From: Pseudomonadota bacterium
GTDB taxonomy: Bacteria > Myxococcota > JACRCW01 > JAFGSX01
Assembly (NCBI GenBank): GCA_043821645.1
Contig: JBDRCO010000087.1
Span: 96,001-160,000, forward strand
DNA: 64,000 nt
Direction of reading: 5' to 3'
Below are positions 51,464 through 60,665 of this stretch, piece after piece. Position numbers and translations under genes: made by a program. Each line of letters starts with the position of its first letter. The first letter of the stretch is position 1. The notes below the pieces were generated by a model that did not search any database, had not been told where the DNA came from, and saw only the letters and a program-made list of their open reading frames with translations.

Positions 51464-54403
51464 CTACAGCGCGTAGCTCAGACTCAGGTAGAAGCTGCGG
51501 CCGGGTTGCCGCAGCGTGGTATCCGCGATGTCCTCGCCCACGGGCAGTCGATACTCCCAGTCCAGGGCATTGCGAAGGCCCGCGGCGTACTCCAGGCCCA
51601 GTGGCTGATAGCGCCCGGACAGGGTCAGATCGAGCAGGGCAATGGGTGGGAGCTGGTGATCCAGGGTGTCGCGCCGTCCGAACTCCCAGTACAGGCGGCC
51701 TGCGCCGATGAGTGCGCGCCCGGCCAGCGGGACCACTGCCTTGAGCCCGACGAGGTGCTCGGGGGAGTTGGGCAGGGTCTGCGCGCCAAGCAGATCGGTG
51801 GCCCGGGTGCGCTGGAAGGAATACTGGGCCGAGGCCAGGATGCCCTGGCTCAGCTCACGCCTCAGCTCGACCTCGGCGCCAGCCGTCCACACCGGATCCG
51901 GACTGTTGTCGTAGTAAAAAGGGTTGTTCGACACGCCCTCGCCGACCTGGGTGACCAGCTCGGTGATGTAATTGACGAACACCGCGCCGCTCAACCACAG
52001 GCGTTCCATCAGGCGCCTGTTGTACTCGAGTTCGGCGGTGATGACGGCCTCGGGCGACAGGCCAGGACTCTGGATCTGGGTCTCGCCACCATCCCAGTAG
52101 GTCAGCTCGTAGATGGACGGCGCGCGAAAGGCGCGGCCTACCATCAGCTTGATGCTGTCGTCGTCCGATGGCCTGAGCACCGCGGCCAGGCGCGGATTGA
52201 CCGAGTACAGCAAGCGTTGCTGGGACGCACTGCCCTCCGTCGTCAGGTTGGTGATCCACCAGCCATCGAAGCGCGCTCCGGCCGACAGTCGCAGCCAGCT
52301 CAGCGGGTGCAGATCGAGCACGCCATAGCCAGAACCGACGTGAAAGGGATGCTGCTCGTCGATGGCATCGCCGATCGCCGTGTTGAGAAAATGCCCCTGA
52401 TACTCTGTGCCGAGGGTCAAGCGAAGCCAGTCGAGGGGCTCGAGCTCGCCACGGATCTCCGCGCCACCCCAGGCTCCGGTGAATCGCTCCGTCAGCAGCC
52501 CGTCCTCGACCTGGTAGGGGAAGGCACCCTGGTAGGCCGCGTAATCGAGGTAGGTCCGCGCATGCAGGCGCAGCCATGACGCGAGCTCCGGCTCGTAGCG
52601 CAGGTCCAGGAAGCCTCGCTGGTCGTCCTCGTGCTCGCGCCTGTCGCCGAAGATGGTACCGAAGGCTGCGGTGGGAATCTGCTTGGCGCGGTGATTGAAG
52701 TAGCCTTGCAGGCTGAGATCCTTCCACCACCCACGCAGCAGCACGGTGCCAGCCTGGAAGTCGCCGACGCCGTGGGCGACCCCGTCCGGGGCCCAGGGTG
52801 TGCCCACGTAGGCATCGTAGGCCAGGTCGCGCGCTTGGCCGAGGGATCCGCTCGCCGCGGCCCAGAAGCCCCCTTCGTCGCCGAGGCTGTGGCCCCCATC
52901 TGCTCCGAAACCGGCACTGCCGTCACCCAGGGCGAACAGGCTGGTGCGCACCGTGTGGCGAGGTGCCGTGCGCGGCGTCACCAGGTTGAACACGCCGAGG
53001 AAGGCGTTGCTGCCGTAAAGTGCAGAACCCGGTCCGCGCACGATCTCGATGTGCTCGATGGTGCGCAGGGAGGTCATCAGGTCCTGGTCGACGAAGGAGG
53101 ATCCCACCCAGTCGCCATTCAGGGTGTGCCCGTCGAGCTGCACCAGCACGCGATTGCCGTAGCTGCCAAAGGGCTGCAGCCCGCGCACTCCGAGAGTCCG
53201 GTAGGCGCCGTCGTCGTTGGCGAACACGCTGCGTGAGCCCAGGGCCGCGTCGTACAGCGAGCTGTAGCCCATGGCATCGATCTCGGGTCGGCTGATCACG
53301 GTCACCGAGGCGGGTGCGTCCTGGATGGACTCGACGCTGCGCGAGGCTGCGGCCACCTCATCACTGGCCGCCAGGGCGATCTCGACCAGGGAGCGCGATC
53401 GCGGCGCGATGGTGACGTCCTGCTCCGCGGGGCGGTAGCCCTCGAGTTCAACACGCAGACGGTGCGTCCCTGCACGCAGGTTCTCGACCACCTCGGGGGT
53501 GAAGCCCACGGGCTGTCCGTCGAGCAGGATCAGGGCGTCGCGCTCGTCACACTGCACCACCAAGGCTCCGCGCAATTCCTCGAGCTGGATGCGCAGCGAG
53601 GTCTTCTGGTCGGCCCGCACCACCGGCGTGGCCTGCAGCGTCTCGTGCCCGTCGAGCCCGATGGCAAGCACGGCGGAACCAGGAGGCAGCGAGAGGGTCG
53701 CCGGAACCCGTCCCAGCTCCTTCCCATCTTCGGACCCGGCGCGAATCCAGGCACCCTCGGGCGCGCCCGCGATCTCGAGCGTGCCAAAGATCTGCTTCAG
53801 CTCGACGCGCACCGGTGTCTCGGTTCCCACGGCGAGCTTGACGTCCTTGACGACGACGGGCTCGAAGCCGTCGAGCTCGAGCAGGACCTGTATGGTGGCG
53901 GGTGCCAGGGCGAGATCGCGCGGTGTCGTGCCGTAGCTGCCCAGGTCGCGGCGGCCGACGTACACCGTGGCCCCGGGGGGGGTGGTCTCCACGCGCAGCA
54001 GAGCCACATGCTGGCGGACGCGTCGCATGCCCTCCGCGGCCCTGGCGCGGTCCTCGGTGGACACCCCGGACTCCGCGTACATGGAGAAGAAACGATAGGC
54101 CTCGACATACTGCTGCAGACGCTCGTAGCAGCGCGCCACGTTGAAGATCACGTTCTTGTTGGGCGCGAGTCGGTTGGAGGCCAGGTAGTGGGCGACAGCC
54201 CGTCGATACTCGCCCTGGAGGTAGGCCTCGTTGCCGAGGGTGAACAGCACCTCGGCCTCGTCGACCACTCCGGTCTCCATCTGCGCCAGGACCTCGGGGG
54301 CGCTGACCAGGAGGGTGACCCCCACCACCATGGCCCTGCACCATCCGACGGTGGTCCGGCAGCGGCGACGGCACGAGACGACGGGTTCTCTGTCCTCAGG
54401 CAC
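51464..54403 (-). CDS. TonB-dependent receptor with N-terminal TPR and three PEGA domains
   Basis: APASVTVI, GVRG, IEHIEIVRGPGSALYG plug motifs; RAFRAPS, NSP, GRSFYLSLSY barrel end; start uncertain. Confidence 0.92.
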   Translation of the reverse strand: MPEDREPVVSCRRRCRTTVGWCRAMVVGVTLLVSAPEVLAQMETGVVDEAEVLFTLGNEAYLQGEYRRAVAHYLASNRLAPNKNVIFNVARCYERLQQYVEAYRFFSMYAESGVSTEDRARAAEGMRRVRQHVALLRVETTPPGATVYVGRRDLGSYGTTPRDLALAPATIQVLLELDGFEPVVVKDVKLAVGTETPVRVELKQIFGTLEIAGAPEGAWIRAGSEDGKELGRVPATLSLPPGSAVLAIGLDGHETLQATPVVRADQKTSLRIQLEELRGALVVQCDERDALILLDGQPVGFTPEVVENLRAGTHRLRVELEGYRPAEQDVTIAPRSRSLVEIALAASDEVAAASRSVESIQDAPASVTVISRPEIDAMGYSSLYDAALGSRSVFANDDGAYRTLGVRGLQPFGSYGNRVLVQLDGHTLNGDWVGSSFVDQDLMTSLRTIEHIEIVRGPGSALYGSNAFLGVFNLVTPRTAPRHTVRTSLFALGDGSAGFGADGGHSLGDEGGFWAAASGSLGQARDLAYDAYVGTPWAPDGVAHGVGDFQAGTVLLRGWWKDLSLQGYFNHRAKQIPTAAFGTIFGDRREHEDDQRGFLDLRYEPELASWLRLHARTYLDYAAYQGAFPYQVEDGLLTERFTGAWGGAEIRGELEPLDWLRLTLGTEYQGHFLNTAIGDAIDEQHPFHVGSGYGVLDLHPLSWLRLSAGARFDGWWITNLTTEGSASQQRLLYSVNPRLAAVLRPSDDDSIKLMVGRAFRAPSIYELTYWDGGETQIQSPGLSPEAVITAELEYNRRLMERLWLSGAVFVNYITELVTQVGEGVSNNPFYYDNSPDPVWTAGAEVELRRELSQGILASAQYSFQRTRATDLLGAQTLPNSPEHLVGLKAVVPLAGRALIGAGRLYWEFGRRDTLDHQLPPIALLDLTLSGRYQPLGLEYAAGLRNALDWEYRLPVGEDIADTTLRQPGRSFYLSLSYAL

Positions 54404-54463
54404 ATGACCTCCCGTGCAGCACGCCGCTCGGACTCGGGCCGATCGAGTCAAGGGCGCGGCCTG

Positions 54464-57400
54464 TTAGGGCTGCGGGATCATCGCGGGCTGCTTGGTGCGG
54501 TAGGTGGCGTCCACGTGGCGCATCAGCTCGATGAACGCATCCTCGTACTGGCGGCCCTCGGGCAGGCCCTGGAAGTTCATGTAAAAGTTTCCGGTGTAGC
54601 AGTCGGTGGGTCCGCACTCGCCGTCGGCGAAGATCAGGATCATCTTCTGCCAGTCGCTGCGGTTCTCGGCGACCCGGTGCGGCAAGAAGGACTCCTTCAT
54701 GTTGGTGAAGAACACGATGCCCGAGATGACCAGGCCCTCGGCGTCCATGCCCTGGCCGTGCATGAAATACGCGACCGGGAAGCGCGCGTCGGGCTCGAGG
54801 TAGTAGTTGGGTGGCAGCACCAGGCCAAAGTCGAGATCGCGGCTGATGGCGGTGCTGTAGAAGCGCTCGAGGCGTGCGAAGTCCTTGATCTCGCCGCTGG
54901 GGCCGCCGAGCTGGTCGATGTCCGCATTGATGTAGCTGAAGTCGCCTCCGGGCATGCGCGCGGAGGCGAAGGTGAGCATGGTGTACAGGCGGTCCAGCAC
55001 CTGGTCGCCCGGGCCCACGTGATTACCAGAACCAAAAACCTCGTCGACACCGGGACAGACAGACGGGTCACCGTAGCGCAGGTAGGCATTCTTGCCGATG
55101 ACCGAGGGTGCGTAGTCGAGCTCGAGGAACCAGAAGCTGCTGTTCTGGCGCCAGCCCGGGACCGAGGGCTCGCCGTCGAAGGTCCGGCTCGACGGCTCAC
55201 GGGCCTTGAGGGTGCCGTACAGGTTGTTGGTGACCTGGGCCGAGTTGATGAAATCGCGCAGGCCAGCGTCCATCCACCAGTCGAGGCGGTTGAACTCGAC
55301 GTCGCTCATGGTCTGCAACTTGCGCCGCGGGCTCTGCTCGAGGGCGTGTGCCAGGTAGGGATTCTGCGAGTACAGGCCATCCCCCTCGCCGTAGTCGCCG
55401 GTGGCCGGAACCCCGTCGAGTCCGTCGTCACGGTAGGGCTCGCCGTCGTCGTAGCGGAAACTGTGCTCGGTGCCCAGCGTGTTGGCCATGTAGTCGTAGT
55501 CGTCACCGTTGGGATCGGGGTTGGTCGTGGGGTTGTAAGCGCCGCCGCCGCAGCCGCCCTGGCCGTCCTCCTGAGGTGAGGCACAGCCGTCCACCCCGAC
55601 GTCGTCGTAGCGCTCCTCGCTGTTGTCGATGACAGGCTCGCCATAGTCGCGCCGCCCGTTGCCGTTGTAGTCCACCGCCACCGAGAACTCGATGGGGATG
55701 TTGTGGGTGCTCTGGATGACGAAGCGCAGCGGTTGCTGGGGCCGTACCGAGACCGAGCCGCCAAAACCCCGCAGATGGCCGAGCTGCACGCTGCAGGTGC
55801 CCGTGCCACCATTGCACAGGGTCGAGGCGTCCACGCCGTCGACGCTGCCATTGCCGCAGCTGGGGATGCACACCGACGGGTTGCCGCTGCAGGCCCAGCC
55901 AGGATCGACGCCACACCACGGCGAGCAGCCGTCGCCCGGATTCAGGTTGCCGTCGTCACAGCGCTCGCCAGGGTTCAAGGCCCCGTTGCCGCACCGCGAG
56001 GTGGCGCAGGCCGAGGGCTGTCCGGCGCAGGTGTAACCCGGCTCCAGCGCGCACAGGTGGGTGCAGCCATCGCCGTCGGCCGTGTTGCCGTCGTCACAGA
56101 CCTCGCCGGGATCCTGGGTGCCATCACCGCAGTGCAGGACACAGGTCGAGGGCTGGCCCGTGCAGGAATACCCGGGCTCGTAGCTGCAGCCCGGAGAGCA
56201 GCCATCGCCCGCCGCGGTGTTGCCATCGTCGCAGCCCTCGCCTTCATCGACCGCACCGTCGCCACACAAGGGCGCGCACGATCCGGTGGCCGGGCAGCGA
56301 TACCCCTTCTCGACCCGGCAACCAGGGGAGCAACCATCCCCGGCCGCGGTATTTCCGTCGTCACAACGCTCGCCCGCATCGGCCGCGGCATTGCCGCAGG
56401 TGGCGGCGCAGGTCGAGGGTGCGCCCAGGCACGCGTATCCCGGCTCTATGGTGCAGTGATCCGAGCAGCCATCACCGGTGGCGGTGTTGCCGTCGTCGCA
56501 TTGCTCCGAGGGCTCCACCGCGCTGTTGCCGCAGGTATTCTGGCAGGTGGTTCCCTGGCAGGTGTACCCCGGCTCGAGCAGGCAACGCGCCGAGCAGCCG
56601 TCGCCATCGCTCTGGTTGCCGTCGTCACAGGCCTCGCCCTCGACGACGACGCGGGTTCCGCTCTCGCTGTGCGGGTGCGCTGCGCAGTGAAACTGGTAGC
56701 GTCCCGGCTCGGCAAACACCGTGGTGAAGACGCCCCCCGGCCCGAGCAGCGGACTCTCGAAGCGTCCGTCGGCGTTGTCCGCGGGTCCCGACGCCACGCG
56801 GTGCTGATCCGGCCAGAAGTCACCGGTATCGCCCTCCTCGCCGTCGCAGTAGGTGATGACCGGGTAAGACCCATCGGGATTGAACTCGAGGTTGTACAGG
56901 CCGTTGACGACGACGGGGTTGGCGCAGCGCTCGGCCCGGGCCGCGGAGCGCTCCGCCCCGGTCAGGCCCAGGGGCACCCGCCAGCTCTCGGGCACGCCCG
57001 GCGGCAGCAGCGCGTTGTCCGGGTTGTAGGTGAACACGTTGCCGTGGGCGAAGTTGAGATCATGGAAGATCTCGACCAGGCCGTTGCGGGTGAAGCCGCC
57101 GCCGCGTCCCACGTCGGGGCCGCGAAACCAGCTGTTGAAGCCCGAGGGAAAGATCTGGCACTCGGTGCCAGGGGCGGCCGGGTAATCGAGCTGCACCGGA
57201 CCACAGAAGGTGTCGGGATTCTCGGGATCGTCGACCGAATCGAGGTTGTTCAGGATCTGGCTGCGGTCGCAGAAACCGGCCATGTGGCTGTGGCGTATCA
57301 TGTGGGTGAAGAAATCGAAGTCCGAGAACGGAGTGCCCATGACCCCCACCACGTCGAACAGCTCGGGGTGGTTGGCCGCGATGCGCGAGGCCGAACCGCC

Positions 57401-57736
57401 GCCCATGCTCACCCCGGAGATGGCGCGGTAGGTCTGGCAGCGATAGCCCGTGGGGTCGGTCTGTCCGTCATAGGTGCCGGCCGGGCAGGCGCCCAGGCCC
57501 AGGCTCTCGACGTTGTGCACGCAGCTCGAGGGTTCGCCCTTGCACCACCACAGGGCCTCGGTCTGGCAGGTGGCCGAGCAGCCATCGCCCGCCGTGGTGT
57601 TGCCATCGTCGCAGGTCTCCTGGGCGCCGCGCGTGCCATTGCCACAGCGCTCGGACTCGGCGGGTGGGCAGCCGAGGCCGAAAGGGAGCACTCCCAAGCA
57701 CACCAGCATCATGGAAAAGCGCATGTTGAACCTCAT
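54464..57736 (-). CDS. Lipoprotein: permuted alpha/beta-hydrolase (putative esterase) with inserted cupredoxin and myxobacterial Cys-rich (DUF4215-type) repeats
   Basis: Lipobox GLGC; GVSMGG elbow; FPVAYFMHG; seven CDDGNxxxGDGC repeats; YQFHCAAHP. Confidence 0.8.
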   Translation of the reverse strand: MRFNMRFSMMLVCLGVLPFGLGCPPAESERCGNGTRGAQETCDDGNTTAGDGCSATCQTEALWWCKGEPSSCVHNVESLGLGACPAGTYDGQTDPTGYRCQTYRAISGVSMGGGSASRIAANHPELFDVVGVMGTPFSDFDFFTHMIRHSHMAGFCDRSQILNNLDSVDDPENPDTFCGPVQLDYPAAPGTECQIFPSGFNSWFRGPDVGRGGGFTRNGLVEIFHDLNFAHGNVFTYNPDNALLPPGVPESWRVPLGLTGAERSAARAERCANPVVVNGLYNLEFNPDGSYPVITYCDGEEGDTGDFWPDQHRVASGPADNADGRFESPLLGPGGVFTTVFAEPGRYQFHCAAHPHSESGTRVVVEGEACDDGNQSDGDGCSARCLLEPGYTCQGTTCQNTCGNSAVEPSEQCDDGNTATGDGCSDHCTIEPGYACLGAPSTCAATCGNAAADAGERCDDGNTAAGDGCSPGCRVEKGYRCPATGSCAPLCGDGAVDEGEGCDDGNTAAGDGCSPGCSYEPGYSCTGQPSTCVLHCGDGTQDPGEVCDDGNTADGDGCTHLCALEPGYTCAGQPSACATSRCGNGALNPGERCDDGNLNPGDGCSPWCGVDPGWACSGNPSVCIPSCGNGSVDGVDASTLCNGGTGTCSVQLGHLRGFGGSVSVRPQQPLRFVIQSTHNIPIEFSVAVDYNGNGRRDYGEPVIDNSEERYDDVGVDGCASPQEDGQGGCGGGAYNPTTNPDPNGDDYDYMANTLGTEHSFRYDDGEPYRDDGLDGVPATGDYGEGDGLYSQNPYLAHALEQSPRRKLQTMSDVEFNRLDWWMDAGLRDFINSAQVTNNLYGTLKAREPSSRTFDGEPSVPGWRQNSSFWFLELDYAPSVIGKNAYLRYGDPSVCPGVDEVFGSGNHVGPGDQVLDRLYTMLTFASARMPGGDFSYINADIDQLGGPSGEIKDFARLERFYSTAISRDLDFGLVLPPNYYLEPDARFPVAYFMHGQGMDAEGLVISGIVFFTNMKESFLPHRVAENRSDWQKMILIFADGECGPTDCYTGNFYMNFQGLPEGRQYEDAFIELMRHVDATYRTKQPAMIPQP
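55830..56635 (-). repeat. Array of six CDDGNxxxGDGC myxobacterial cysteine-rich repeats
   Basis: Units of about 40 aa with recognisable DNA similarity (TGCGACGACGG(C/A)AA); a seventh copy at about 57560-57650. Confidence 0.9.
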
Positions 57737-57978: not shown

Positions 57979-59706
57979 ATGGCAAAGATTCACGGCGGCC
58001 AGAAGAGCACCACGGCCCAGCAGAACCAGCAGCTGCGCAAGGCTGACGAACTCGGCAAGACCAAGCCCGCGGTGCAGAAGACCGAGACCAAGGGCACGCC
58101 CAAGAAGCTCGAGGCCCAGGCCAACGACGCCGCCATCGACGCCACCCGGGCCAAGGACTTCGCGTCCAGCACCCAGGGCCTCAAGACCGGCGACAACGCC
58201 CTCAACGTGCGCCTCGGCAACGCGGTTGAACAGACCCTCGACAGCGTGCTCGACAGCGTCGAGTGGTCCACGGTGTCCGTGGCCAAGAGCCTGATGAGCG
58301 ATGCCGAACTCACGGCCTTCCAGGAAGGCTCGATGTCGCCCGGGCAGCTGCTGGGGCTGCTCGCCCAGGCGCAGCAGCCCATGGCCAGCGCCGAGCTGCA
58401 GAAGCTGTATCCCGACTTCGGTGAGGTCTACGCCAGCATGACGGCCCAGGAGAAGGCCCAGTGCGACGCCGGCCAGATGACGCCGGTGAGCTTCGAGCAG
58501 GCCCAGGGCGTGATGTGGGAGAGCCATGCCGCCGACGCCGAGGCTTCGATCGAGGACCCGGGGCACGCCTCGGGCCCCCTCAAGCAGCCCGAAGACACGA
58601 AGCTTTACAAGCCCAGCGACATCCGCAACCGGGTCAAGACCGGCAAGGGCCACAATGTGATGTTCGGCGGCCAGCTCATGGACCGCGCGGTGCTGGGCAC
58701 CATGCTCGACGCCATGCAGGGCCAGGGCGACGGCCGGGTCTCGCGTGCCGACATGCACAAGGTGCTGCCCAAGATCCTCGACAGCGGCAAGATCAGCAAC
58801 GCCGAGGAAAACGCCATGCTGTTCGGGCTCAAGTACTGCCGCTTCACCAAGCCGGCGGACCGCGAGCTGGCCAAGGCCATCGGTGAGAAATTCTCGGACT
58901 CGGCCCTGGCGCGCTTCGGCAGCCTCGGCCAGCCACCGCGCTTCAAGGACTACGAGCAGTACGACATGCCCATGTTCGCCGGCCGCGAGGCCGACCTGTA
59001 CGGCGCCAAGGGCGTGATGACCCCCGAGGAGATGGGGACCTGGCAGGCCGGTGACATGACCCTGGCGCAGTTCAACAACGTGCTCAGGCGCGCCAACCAG
59101 CCCATGTCCGCCGACGCCCTGCGCGAGACCTTCGGCGCCTGGACCGCCAACGAGTCCGAGGGCGCCATGACCGACGCCGAGTTCAAGCGCTACGACGCGG
59201 GCAAGATGACGGGTGCCGAGTTCCAGAACATCCAGTACCGCGCCTGGGAGGACGAGAGCCCCTCGATGAAGGGCAAGACCCCCTACCAGGAGGACTTCAA
59301 GCCCGGCTTCAAGCCCTTCGTCGCCGACGACGTGCAGGATCCCAAGCTGCGCGGGCTCAACCAGACCCTGGTCCGCCTCAACGAGCGCCTCGACGCGGGC
59401 GACGTCGACGGCATGCTGGCCCTGTTCGATCAGAAGATCGTCAAGGAGCAGCTCAGCTTCCTGACCAGCGAAGGGCAGAGCCTGCCCGAGGCCAAGCAGC
59501 AGTTCCTGCTCGAGGCCCTGAACCTGCGCGGCGCGGTGAGCAACCTCGGCCAGGTCGAGGACATCTCGCTGGACACCTCGCGCGTCGAGCGCTTCGGCCC
59601 TGACAGCTTCAACGCCTTCGGCGTGGCCATCCTCAAGAACGGCGACACCACCTCGGCCAACGTGCTGCTCAACAACGACTACAGCCTGACCTCGGCCGTC
59701 GGCTAG
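57979..59706 (+). CDS. Hypothetical signal-less protein with a duplicated ~83-aa domain flanking a DGRVS helical domain
   Basis: AAGGGG RBS; strongly biased codon usage; internal repeats at about 58279-58524 and 59002-59253. Confidence 0.8.
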   Translation: MAKIHGGQKSTTAQQNQQLRKADELGKTKPAVQKTETKGTPKKLEAQANDAAIDATRAKDFASSTQGLKTGDNALNVRLGNAVEQTLDSVLDSVEWSTVSVAKSLMSDAELTAFQEGSMSPGQLLGLLAQAQQPMASAELQKLYPDFGEVYASMTAQEKAQCDAGQMTPVSFEQAQGVMWESHAADAEASIEDPGHASGPLKQPEDTKLYKPSDIRNRVKTGKGHNVMFGGQLMDRAVLGTMLDAMQGQGDGRVSRADMHKVLPKILDSGKISNAEENAMLFGLKYCRFTKPADRELAKAIGEKFSDSALARFGSLGQPPRFKDYEQYDMPMFAGREADLYGAKGVMTPEEMGTWQAGDMTLAQFNNVLRRANQPMSADALRETFGAWTANESEGAMTDAEFKRYDAGKMTGAEFQNIQYRAWEDESPSMKGKTPYQEDFKPGFKPFVADDVQDPKLRGLNQTLVRLNERLDAGDVDGMLALFDQKIVKEQLSFLTSEGQSLPEAKQQFLLEALNLRGAVSNLGQVEDISLDTSRVERFGPDSFNAFGVAILKNGDTTSANVLLNNDYSLTSAVG

Positions 59707-59723: not shown

Positions 59724-60665
59724 TTGTCCCTCACCACCGGCATCGAGCTCGAGCTGCTCTTGCCCCCGGGCATGACGCGGATGGATCTGCTCGAGCGGCT
59801 GCGCGCCTTCACCGGCGGTCAGGTGCAGCCCTTCGAGTTTCCGTCCAAGGTCCCGGTACCCCACCCCGCCCGCGCCGGGCTCGAGGGCGAGGCGGCCATC
59901 CAGGCGTGCCTCGCTGCCATGCAGGACATCGCCGCGCACCACCAGGCGCGCCTGCACTCTATCCGCCCCGACGGGCAGTTCTTCTACCTGTCGCATCGTT
60001 GTGGCCGCCTGGTGGATGAGCACGGCATGACCCTGCTCGAGGTGGTGCACGACAACACCCTGGCCGGTGGCGAGCGCGTGGCCGAGGTGATCACGCCGCC
60101 CCTGGCACCGGAGCAGGCGGACTGGCTTGCCGCCCTCATCGCGCAGCTGGCTGCGGTACCCGGCATCGAGGTTCCCCCGCGCGCAGCCTTGCACGTTCAC
60201 GTCGACGGAAAAGCTCTATGCGACGCCGAGACCCTGGCGCGCCTGGTCGCGCTGTATCTCGATCACGAAGCGCTGCTGCGGCGCTGGCTGCACACGCCCA
60301 CAGGTCTGCACGCCGACCGGCGCATGCCTCACGCCTTGCTGAGATCCCTGCACGCTGGCGTTGGCCAACCCTGGGAGCAGGTGCGGCCGACCCTGGCGCG
60401 GGCGCTGCCCGACAACTGCTGCGGTCTCAACCTGTACAACCTGGCTCACGACCGTCGGGACAAGCTCACCGTCGAACTCAAGCTGGCGGCGGCCAGCCTC
60501 GATCCGGCCTGGGTGCTGGCGGTGCGTGCGCTGTTCGTGGCTCTGGTCGAGCTGGCGCTGGCGTGCGATGTGGACCTGCCCCGGGATGCCGCGGCGCTGG
60601 TGCACGCCATCGACCCTGCTGACCGTATCGTGCCCGTCCTCGCTGGCGCTGCCCGCGCGCCATGA
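59724..60665 (+). CDS. Putative amidoligase (COOH-NH2 ligase, Amidoligase_2-like)
   Basis: GIELEL, EVITPPL, ALHVHVD, GLNL, TVELK motifs in order; TTG start. Confidence 0.72.
   Translation: MSLTTGIELELLLPPGMTRMDLLERLRAFTGGQVQPFEFPSKVPVPHPARAGLEGEAAIQACLAAMQDIAAHHQARLHSIRPDGQFFYLSHRCGRLVDEHGMTLLEVVHDNTLAGGERVAEVITPPLAPEQADWLAALIAQLAAVPGIEVPPRAALHVHVDGKALCDAETLARLVALYLDHEALLRRWLHTPTGLHADRRMPHALLRSLHAGVGQPWEQVRPTLARALPDNCCGLNLYNLAHDRRDKLTVELKLAAASLDPAWVLAVRALFVALVELALACDVDLPRDAAALVHAIDPADRIVPVLAGAARAP

Follow-up and report, generated by a model that had tools for sequence, protein, structure and literature searches.

The window analysed here, a 64,000-nucleotide stretch of contig JBDRCO010000087.1 (assembly GCA_043821645.1), carries on its minus strand a gene for a 1090-residue protein, P0001, in which a circularly permuted hydrolase appears to have captured a cupredoxin that is itself permuted. 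We propose that a 366-residue module entered a hairpin loop of two to three residues in the ancestor of a small clade with five known members, hereafter the long forms. The module would be a single cupredoxin of the Copper-bind/Cupredoxin_1 type, its chain opened in the loop immediately ahead of the first ligand histidine, so that strands 4–8 come first and strands 1–3 last, with the native C- and N-termini bridged by six DUF4215 modules and a degenerate partial one. The two halves would reassemble into one sandwich with a putative metal site beside the host junction, and the array would form a closed, protruding, disulfide-rich arm. The product would be a lipoprotein, exposed at the surface or in the periplasm and built around a serine hydrolase core of the CE1/esterase D type; its source is an uncultured Myxococcota-like lineage. 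We give this explanation as a whole a probability of roughly 0.6. In window coordinates, the gene and its parts are as follows.

54464–57736, minus strand: whole gene of P0001 (1090 amino acids), a lipoprotein-type precursor and permuted esterase-like hydrolase with an insert; open reading frame and translation, read from the methionine at 57736.
57521–57646, minus strand: single N-terminal DUF4215/TIGR02232 unit, residues 31–72, six cysteines, found in the five long forms only; 17-sequence alignment, cysteine counts and TIGR02232.
56804–57508, minus strand: host part 1, residues 77–311; it contains the nucleophile elbow G108-V-S110-M-G-G-G and closes with the loop GDFWPDQ.
56639–56803, minus strand: cupredoxin C-terminal half, residues 312–366, strands 4–8, with candidate ligands His312 (56801–56803), Cys351 (56684–56686) and His354 (56675–56677), and Ser357/Glu358 (56663–56665) in place of methionine; phmmer, hhalign and hidden Markov model (HMM).
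55859–56638, minus strand: six DUF4215 units, residues 367–626, the first without its Cys1 (five cysteines) and the other five with six cysteines each; Pfam, TIGR02232, DNA repeats and cysteine counts.
55796–55858, minus strand: degenerate partial unit, residues 627–647 (CGNGSVDG...LCNGGTGT), with Cys627 and Cys641, followed by Cys648, which opens the next segment; sequence, cysteines invariant in 5/5.
55706–55795, minus strand: three-strand segment, residues 648–677, candidate cupredoxin strands 1–3, with the invariant His654 (55775–55777); AF2 and hhalign.
54467–55705, minus strand: host part 2, residues 678–1090, starting with His678 (55703–55705), with GNH906VGP and, near the C-terminal end, HGQG at 993–996.

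The insert comprises residues 312–677 (366 residues; 55706–56803, minus strand), exactly where the initial annotation had placed a cassette nested inside a hydrolase. A protein search covering 5.8 billion sequences returned four full-length relatives of P0001 (1084–1096 amino acids, 62–67% identity, 98–99% coverage), together with dozens of relatives of about 690 amino acids that carry PF00756 only. Alignments were made of 17 and of 62 sequences, the larger one containing the 5 long and 57 short forms. In these alignments the five long proteins have the block in common and all 57 short ones are without it; their insert columns hold two residues (36/57) or three (21/57), and the insertion point is a tight loop or hairpin with GDY[DE]P on one side and xP[VI]E on the other. 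Since four other proteins show the same architecture at 62–67% identity, the insert is neither a misassembly nor recent. A genome scan with one genome per species gave 229 relatives at 33–50% identity, labelled as metagenome-assembled genomes of Myxococcota (Kofleriaceae, Haliangiales, Polyangia). None of the best 80, which were inspected, was longer than 2,052 nt, and these are therefore all short forms; the best match was 50% identical, the genome of the window itself being absent from the set scanned. In an unrooted tree of the 62 proteins built from host columns only, the long forms make up one clade (SH-aLRT 100), and the insert trait needs a single change.

Judged by its sequence matches, the segment of residues 312–366 is clearly the back half of a cupredoxin, as had been proposed for the opening of the insert. 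Among the 38 PDB entries that phmmer matched at E ≤ 10, cupredoxins accounted for 36, led by a copper nitrite reductase (1.6e-6) and plastocyanin 1pcs (7.7e-4) and followed by many amicyanins; the two others were molinate hydrolase chains (E about 0.4). Against a library of 1.84 billion representative sequences, 677 matches were found at E ≤ 1e-3. The best 150 of these all have at least two matched stretches (2–11 each), and the 15 proteins among them that were scanned proved to be Copper-bind/Cupredoxin_1 proteins, mostly multi-domain. A profile of the 140 nearest domains gave one match per long form, confined to residues 311–365 (E 1e-13 to 7e-9), and hhalign aligned the C-terminal half with that profile at P 1.4e-17. 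In P0001 itself, Pfam places a Copper-bind match below threshold at residues 327–361, and NCBIfam gives weak amicyanin and plastocyanin matches at 315–366. The segment has in common with the Copper-bind (PF00127) and Cupredoxin_1 (PF13473) families, for example amicyanin and plastocyanin, the HTVT-type ligand histidine, the YxFxC-x2-H-P loop and the final strand. Membership by sequence match thus goes together with a departure from the canonical strand order 1–8: in P0001 strands 4–8 precede the candidate strands 1–3, and 281 residues of cysteine repeats lie between the native ends. In the AF2 model of the full-length protein, calculated from the 62-row alignment (mean predicted local distance difference test score, pLDDT, 72.1; predicted template modelling score 0.71), this half reaches a pLDDT of 64–87.

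The HMM alignment places His312 on the ligand histidine of the family (pHTVT against QHRVAS), and Cys351 and His354 on the C-x2-H-P loop. His312, Cys351, His354 and Glu358 are invariant in 5/5 long forms, as is the motif C-x2-H-P-x-[ST]-E, and this conserved ligand set suggests the putative metal site of the initial annotation. The type 1 set His...Cys-x2-His-x2/3-Met is incomplete, its methionine being absent and its three other ligands kept in 5/5. The claim that the axial methionine reads as glutamate stands in part. Glu358 is indeed invariant, and among the 338 ligand loops of the 150 nearest cupredoxin proteins methionine occupies that later position (H+4) in 11; the more usual position is H+3 (317 loops), and the HMM alignment puts Ser/Thr357 in the methionine column, with Glu358 one residue later. 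The combination of no methionine with a glutamate occurs in none of these 338 loops. From the pattern His312/Cys351/His354 with the carboxylate of Glu358, we infer a site that binds metal, most likely copper, in a non-blue (green or red-like) centre. According to PMC10804444, acetate in the axial place of the AcoP M171A variant gives a red five-coordinate copper centre; nitrosocyanin, described there as the only natural red cupredoxin, has a site of one cysteine, two histidines and a glutamate, in which the glutamate replaces an equatorial histidine and a histidine serves as the fourth ligand. P0001 would have in common with nitrosocyanin and with axial-carboxylate variants a candidate ligand composition of cysteine, two histidines and a carboxylate. 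It would differ from nitrosocyanin in that both canonical histidines are kept and the glutamate is either axial or adjacent to the axial place. The work found on azurin M121E concerns double mutants and adds little here.

Further conserved residues surround the proposed site. Both junctions do carry a CAC histidine codon, at 56801–56803 (His312) and 55703–55705 (His678), as first noticed. No support was found for treating this codon pair as a junction footprint: His312 aligns with the canonical first copper ligand and therefore belongs to the cupredoxin, and His678 is a host-loop position that is histidine in 11/57 short forms and in 5/5 long forms. Trp308 and His654 are invariant in the long forms only. 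These residues seem to be adaptations surrounding a metal site where the domains meet, and not scars of recombination, and His654 and His678 may contribute to the putative site.

The segment that follows the array, residues 648–677, is the least secure part of the reading. AF2 predicts strands at 648–653, 661–664 and 670–674 with a pLDDT of 74–86 and a cupredoxin-like spacing, a statement about strands and confidence values, not about contacts. In hhalign, the whole-domain profile places residues 660–673 on the strand 2–3 hairpin (..tV..GtTVtW.) at P 0.033. When the segment was aligned with the 36 columns before the ligand histidine, its local score was reached by 3/200 column shuffles, and the score of a gap-free global alignment of all 31 residues by 5/200. 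The gap-free alignment sets Phe658 on the conserved phenylalanine and RPxQxL[RQ][FL] on xxGtTVtW, within the family pattern F.P..ltV..GttVtW. Closing the domain as ...RFVIQST + HRVASG... implies a strand 3–4 loop two to three residues shorter than that of the family, and residues 648–677 run straight into the host strand at 680–688. The annotated claim that strands of the N-terminal half come after the array is borne out in part: the position, the gap-free register and the three AF2 strands favour it; the segment finds no match in Pfam, the PDB or HMM searches, and between 3 and 16 of 200 shuffles reach its scores. A complex prediction of the two halves (residues 309–368 and 641–680; five-row alignments, no controls) gave 0.23, 0.33 and 0.25, a median of 0.25 against a mark of 0.32, and weighs on neither side. 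Segment 648–677 quite probably completes the cupredoxin sandwich.

Several results weigh against the proposed explanation. Residues 648–677 gave no phmmer match in the PDB, no Pfam family at E ≤ 10 and no usable match in the ESM Atlas. An HMM of the five N-terminal halves, run against the 150 nearest cupredoxin proteins, reached a best domain E of 0.68, and the cupredoxin HMM, run against the five long forms at E ≤ 1000, found the C-terminal half only. The whole-domain hhalign score was reached by 16/200 column shuffles and by 1/70 host windows. The homology of the N-terminal half is accordingly not established, its likeness to strands 1–3 being no more than nominally significant. The C-terminal half scores 20.1 bits with Copper-bind, where the Pfam cutoff is 21.2, a narrow miss explained by the split of the domain, of which no more than one half is contiguous. 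The insert modelled by itself with AF2 (390 amino acids, five sequences) had a mean pLDDT of 47.6, too low for any use, Foldseek included. A Foldseek search with the full-length model returned host esterase matches only, so it says nothing about the cupredoxin. The cupredoxin halves evolve faster than the host, with mean identities among the long forms of 50% and 55% as against 66–70%. No CDDGN motif occurs in the best 150 of the 677 cupredoxin matches (0/150), and no HC..HP motif in the 115 other matches of the whole-protein search (P0006–P0120; 0/115). Metal binding, too, is entirely inferred, here from the conservation of candidate ligands.

The array between the halves consists of six copies, as annotated, with periods of 129–138 nt and 65–78% identity at the DNA level; Tandem Repeats Finder reported no repeats. 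P0001 scores 144.6 bits with DUF4215 (cutoff 27) and 302 bits with TIGR02232 (cutoff 20.8), over seven stretches in each case. That the array is cut at both ends is likewise borne out: unit 1 starts at GEACDDGN without the cysteine of CGNG, and the six units are followed by CGNGSVDGVDASTLCNGGTGTC, with three cysteines, that is, CGNGSVDG and two more. The repeat units have a pLDDT below 50, despite the same five-sequence alignment depth as the cupredoxin pieces. One unit matches residues 878–937 of human pappalysin-2 (8sl1_A) at E 6.9e-12; the match runs from the CGxG cysteine to the sixth cysteine, which makes the earlier repeat phase reasonable. Pappalysin-2 contains a homologous module, with one unit aligned, and a solved structure of one DUF4215-homologous unit therefore exists (PDB 8sl1), from which the disulfide pattern might be read. 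Compared with DUF4215/TIGR02232 arrays elsewhere, the array of P0001 would be unusual as a closed bridge between the ends of one domain, with a first unit lacking Cys1 and a last one truncated to three cysteines. After the lipobox cysteine, each of the five long forms has exactly 57 cysteines, to which the N-terminal unit contributes 6, the host 12, the array 38 and the cupredoxin 1. With an odd total, one cysteine stays without a partner, in keeping with a free Cys351 thiolate. If pairing takes place within units, the five-cysteine first unit and the three-cysteine last piece would share one disulfide, tying the ends of the array together. At the start of the array, the DNA for SGTRVVVEGEACDDGN (56616–56662, minus strand), which leads from the last cupredoxin strand into the first repeat, is 68% identical over 47 nt to the CGNGxxxxGExCDDGN lead of other units. 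Exactly at the Cys1 position of that lead stands Ser359, a residue that the other four proteins do not share. The lead of unit 1 may have given rise to the last cupredoxin strand or have been displaced by it.

The host belongs to a hydrolase family of about 690 amino acids in which, to our knowledge, no member has been characterised. P0001 scores 39.2 bits with PF00756 (cutoff 22), positions 1–115 of this profile, which ordinary esterases have at their N-terminus, corresponding to residues 961–1084, and the elbow GVSMGGG lies at 108–114. Residues 103–131 align with positions 139–167 of the esterase D model. In the host profile, positions 544–673 match residues 30–142 of feruloyl esterase 7xrt_A (E 2.3e-14), and positions 58–88 align with the nucleophile-elbow regions of other esterases. 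The hydrolase motifs have been kept, with S110, H906 and HGQG unchanged throughout the 62-sequence alignment; the neighbours G108 and G112 and the pair H993-G994 are likewise invariant in 62/62. Host part 1 has a pLDDT mostly of 85–98 in the full-length AF2 model. The PF00756 match, GxSxG and HG are thus all present, and the canonical PF00756 order, with respect to an oxyanion segment that here comes after the nucleophile elbow, is not. On these alignments, a circular permutation sets the entire family, 57 short and 5 long forms alike, apart from CE1 feruloyl esterases and esterase D. With these PF00756 enzymes and with the PHB (polyhydroxybutyrate) depolymerase of P. funiculosum, 2d80, which is described as a circularly permuted alpha/beta hydrolase, P0001 has in common the GxSxG elbow, the HG oxyanion motif and matches in sequence and fold; relative to CE1 enzymes and esterase D, the P0001 family has the two halves in swapped order and is much larger. 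Foldseek, run with the full-length model, covered only some half of each esterase; for 2d80 the alignment extended over 326 columns. PMC9601781 describes the topology of 2d80 as unlike that of another PHBase.

The signal peptide of P0001 ends in Cys23, a cysteine kept in at least 90% of the 62 homologs, mostly in a lipobox context. An extra short GQGGCGGG-like segment with Cys718 and Cys729 (residues 715–726 region; 55559–55594, minus strand) is found in the long forms only, and is the third addition specific to this clade. A single permutation of the whole gene, in which a canonical cupredoxin would contain an esterase in canonical order, was considered as one origin for both swaps and rejected, because the host is permuted even in the short forms, which have no insert.

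As to the origin of the module, the likeliest route would be either an excerpt one period long, taken out of register from tandem cupredoxins, or a duplication followed by loss of the outer halves, with the cysteine array lying in the inter-domain linker. The closest cupredoxins are tandem arrays, which makes out-of-register capture or duplication–deletion simpler than circular DNA. An unpermuted donor, which the initial annotation suggested looking for, did not appear in profile and motif searches: the 58-residue C-terminal half, used as a word-indexed query, found only itself, a five-row profile of it retrieved nothing from 5265 candidates beyond the five long forms, and no donor joining a cupredoxin to DUF4215 came up in these searches. 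The initial annotation had named, beside duplication–deletion, the integration of a circular DNA module, cupredoxin and array closed on themselves, at a histidine codon, with CAC as the crossover footprint. The insert is exactly one "period" of cupredoxin plus array and so formally a possible circle, and a common AGCACC overlaps both CAC codons. These 6 nt are, however, all that the junctions share; an identity of 3–6 nt in DNA of 68% GC is at chance level, His312 is a functional first ligand, and histidine stands at the position of His678 in 11/57 insert-free homologs. In this clade, 33–38% diverged at the protein level, every one of the five members carries the insert, so the event is older than this divergence and a DNA scar should not survive. 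The GC content shows no compositional break (0.68–0.71 in the insert and 0.63–0.69 in the flanking host), no flanking direct repeat family was found around the insert, and the features of a mobile element (direct repeats, a GC break, presence/absence among close relatives) are lacking; recombinases were sought only in the three neighbouring open reading frames. Since an out-of-register excerpt from tandem cupredoxins, the arrangement of the nearest relatives, would yield the same product and nothing supports the circular DNA, we regard the latter as quite improbable. What remains of the proposed footprint of domain shuffling is a shuffled, probably permuted module, in the form of an old and conserved insert instead of a fresh integration scar.

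A different reading accepts the back half and the array as captured and takes the 30 residues after the array for unrelated strands that extend the host sheet, so that neither a sandwich nor a copper site would form. The missing significant match of the N-terminal half and its 16/200 shuffles speak for such a half-domain relic, as do the continuation of the segment into the host strand and the low conservation of the cupredoxin pieces, the lowest in the protein. Strands 4–8 alone would nevertheless expose the core of the sandwich, and yet the four ligand positions and the odd cysteine are kept in 5/5; the candidate N-terminal half also aligns gap-free in the predicted register (3–5/200 shuffles), and AF2 is confident on both pieces and not on the repeats. 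We consider the relic unlikely. That the insert was ancestral and lost once, precisely, toward all short forms is very improbable. On the unrooted tree one change suffices in either direction, so that a single precise loss is formally possible, a point that also counts against our explanation. Gain is nonetheless favoured, because in number and diversity the short forms far exceed the long ones (57 aligned, and the 229 genome relatives at 33–50% identity), and because a loss would need to end in a clean hairpin of two to three residues while deleting, at the same time, the N-terminal repeat and the Cys718/Cys729 segment, which the long clade alone possesses. An assembly artefact, a contig mis-joined through its repeats, had been named beforehand as a possible refutation. 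Repeats are indeed present, but their copies are only 65–78% identical in DNA and escape Tandem Repeats Finder, and in four independent orthologs from other data sets neither the order nor the number of the units differs; the artefact is thereby excluded for practical purposes.

The permuted cupredoxin within the permuted hydrolase lies in the following surroundings. The next gene (51464–54451, minus strand) starts 12 nt past the stop codon and is possibly co-transcribed; it encodes TPR, three PEGA domains and the plug and barrel of a TonB-dependent receptor. A pairing with a TonB-dependent receptor is not conserved beside the short homologs, with one weak match in 80 loci. Upstream, a divergent open reading frame of 574 amino acids (57982–59703, plus strand) matches no Pfam family, and another (59724–60662, plus strand) has an Amidoligase_2 match (E 2.8e-9).

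In the accessible portions of the literature on cupredoxins and circular permutation, no natural permuted cupredoxin is evident; the permutation treated in PMC3143127 concerns imelysin and not a cupredoxin. If the two halves close, P0001 and its relatives would represent a rare nesting, a permuted hydrolase hosting a permuted cupredoxin with repeat-bridged native ends, and half-domains about 280 residues apart could persist over long evolutionary time. The closed bridge would, if true, be the first structural role for the uncharacterised DUF4215 repeat. We tentatively suggest, at clearly less than even odds, that the permuted cupredoxin is clamped by the six-module disulfide arm and the host loop and holds a Cys-His-His-carboxylate (red or green) copper centre at the junction with the serine hydrolase, possibly with ligation by His654 or His678, and that copper or the redox state could gate or assist an extracellular esterase. 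Such a natural cupredoxin scaffold, with the axial methionine changed to Ser/Thr plus glutamate, is of interest for copper-site chemistry, and, if the site is as proposed, the family would stand beside nitrosocyanin as a second way in which nature arrives at a cupredoxin copper site ligated by a carboxylate.

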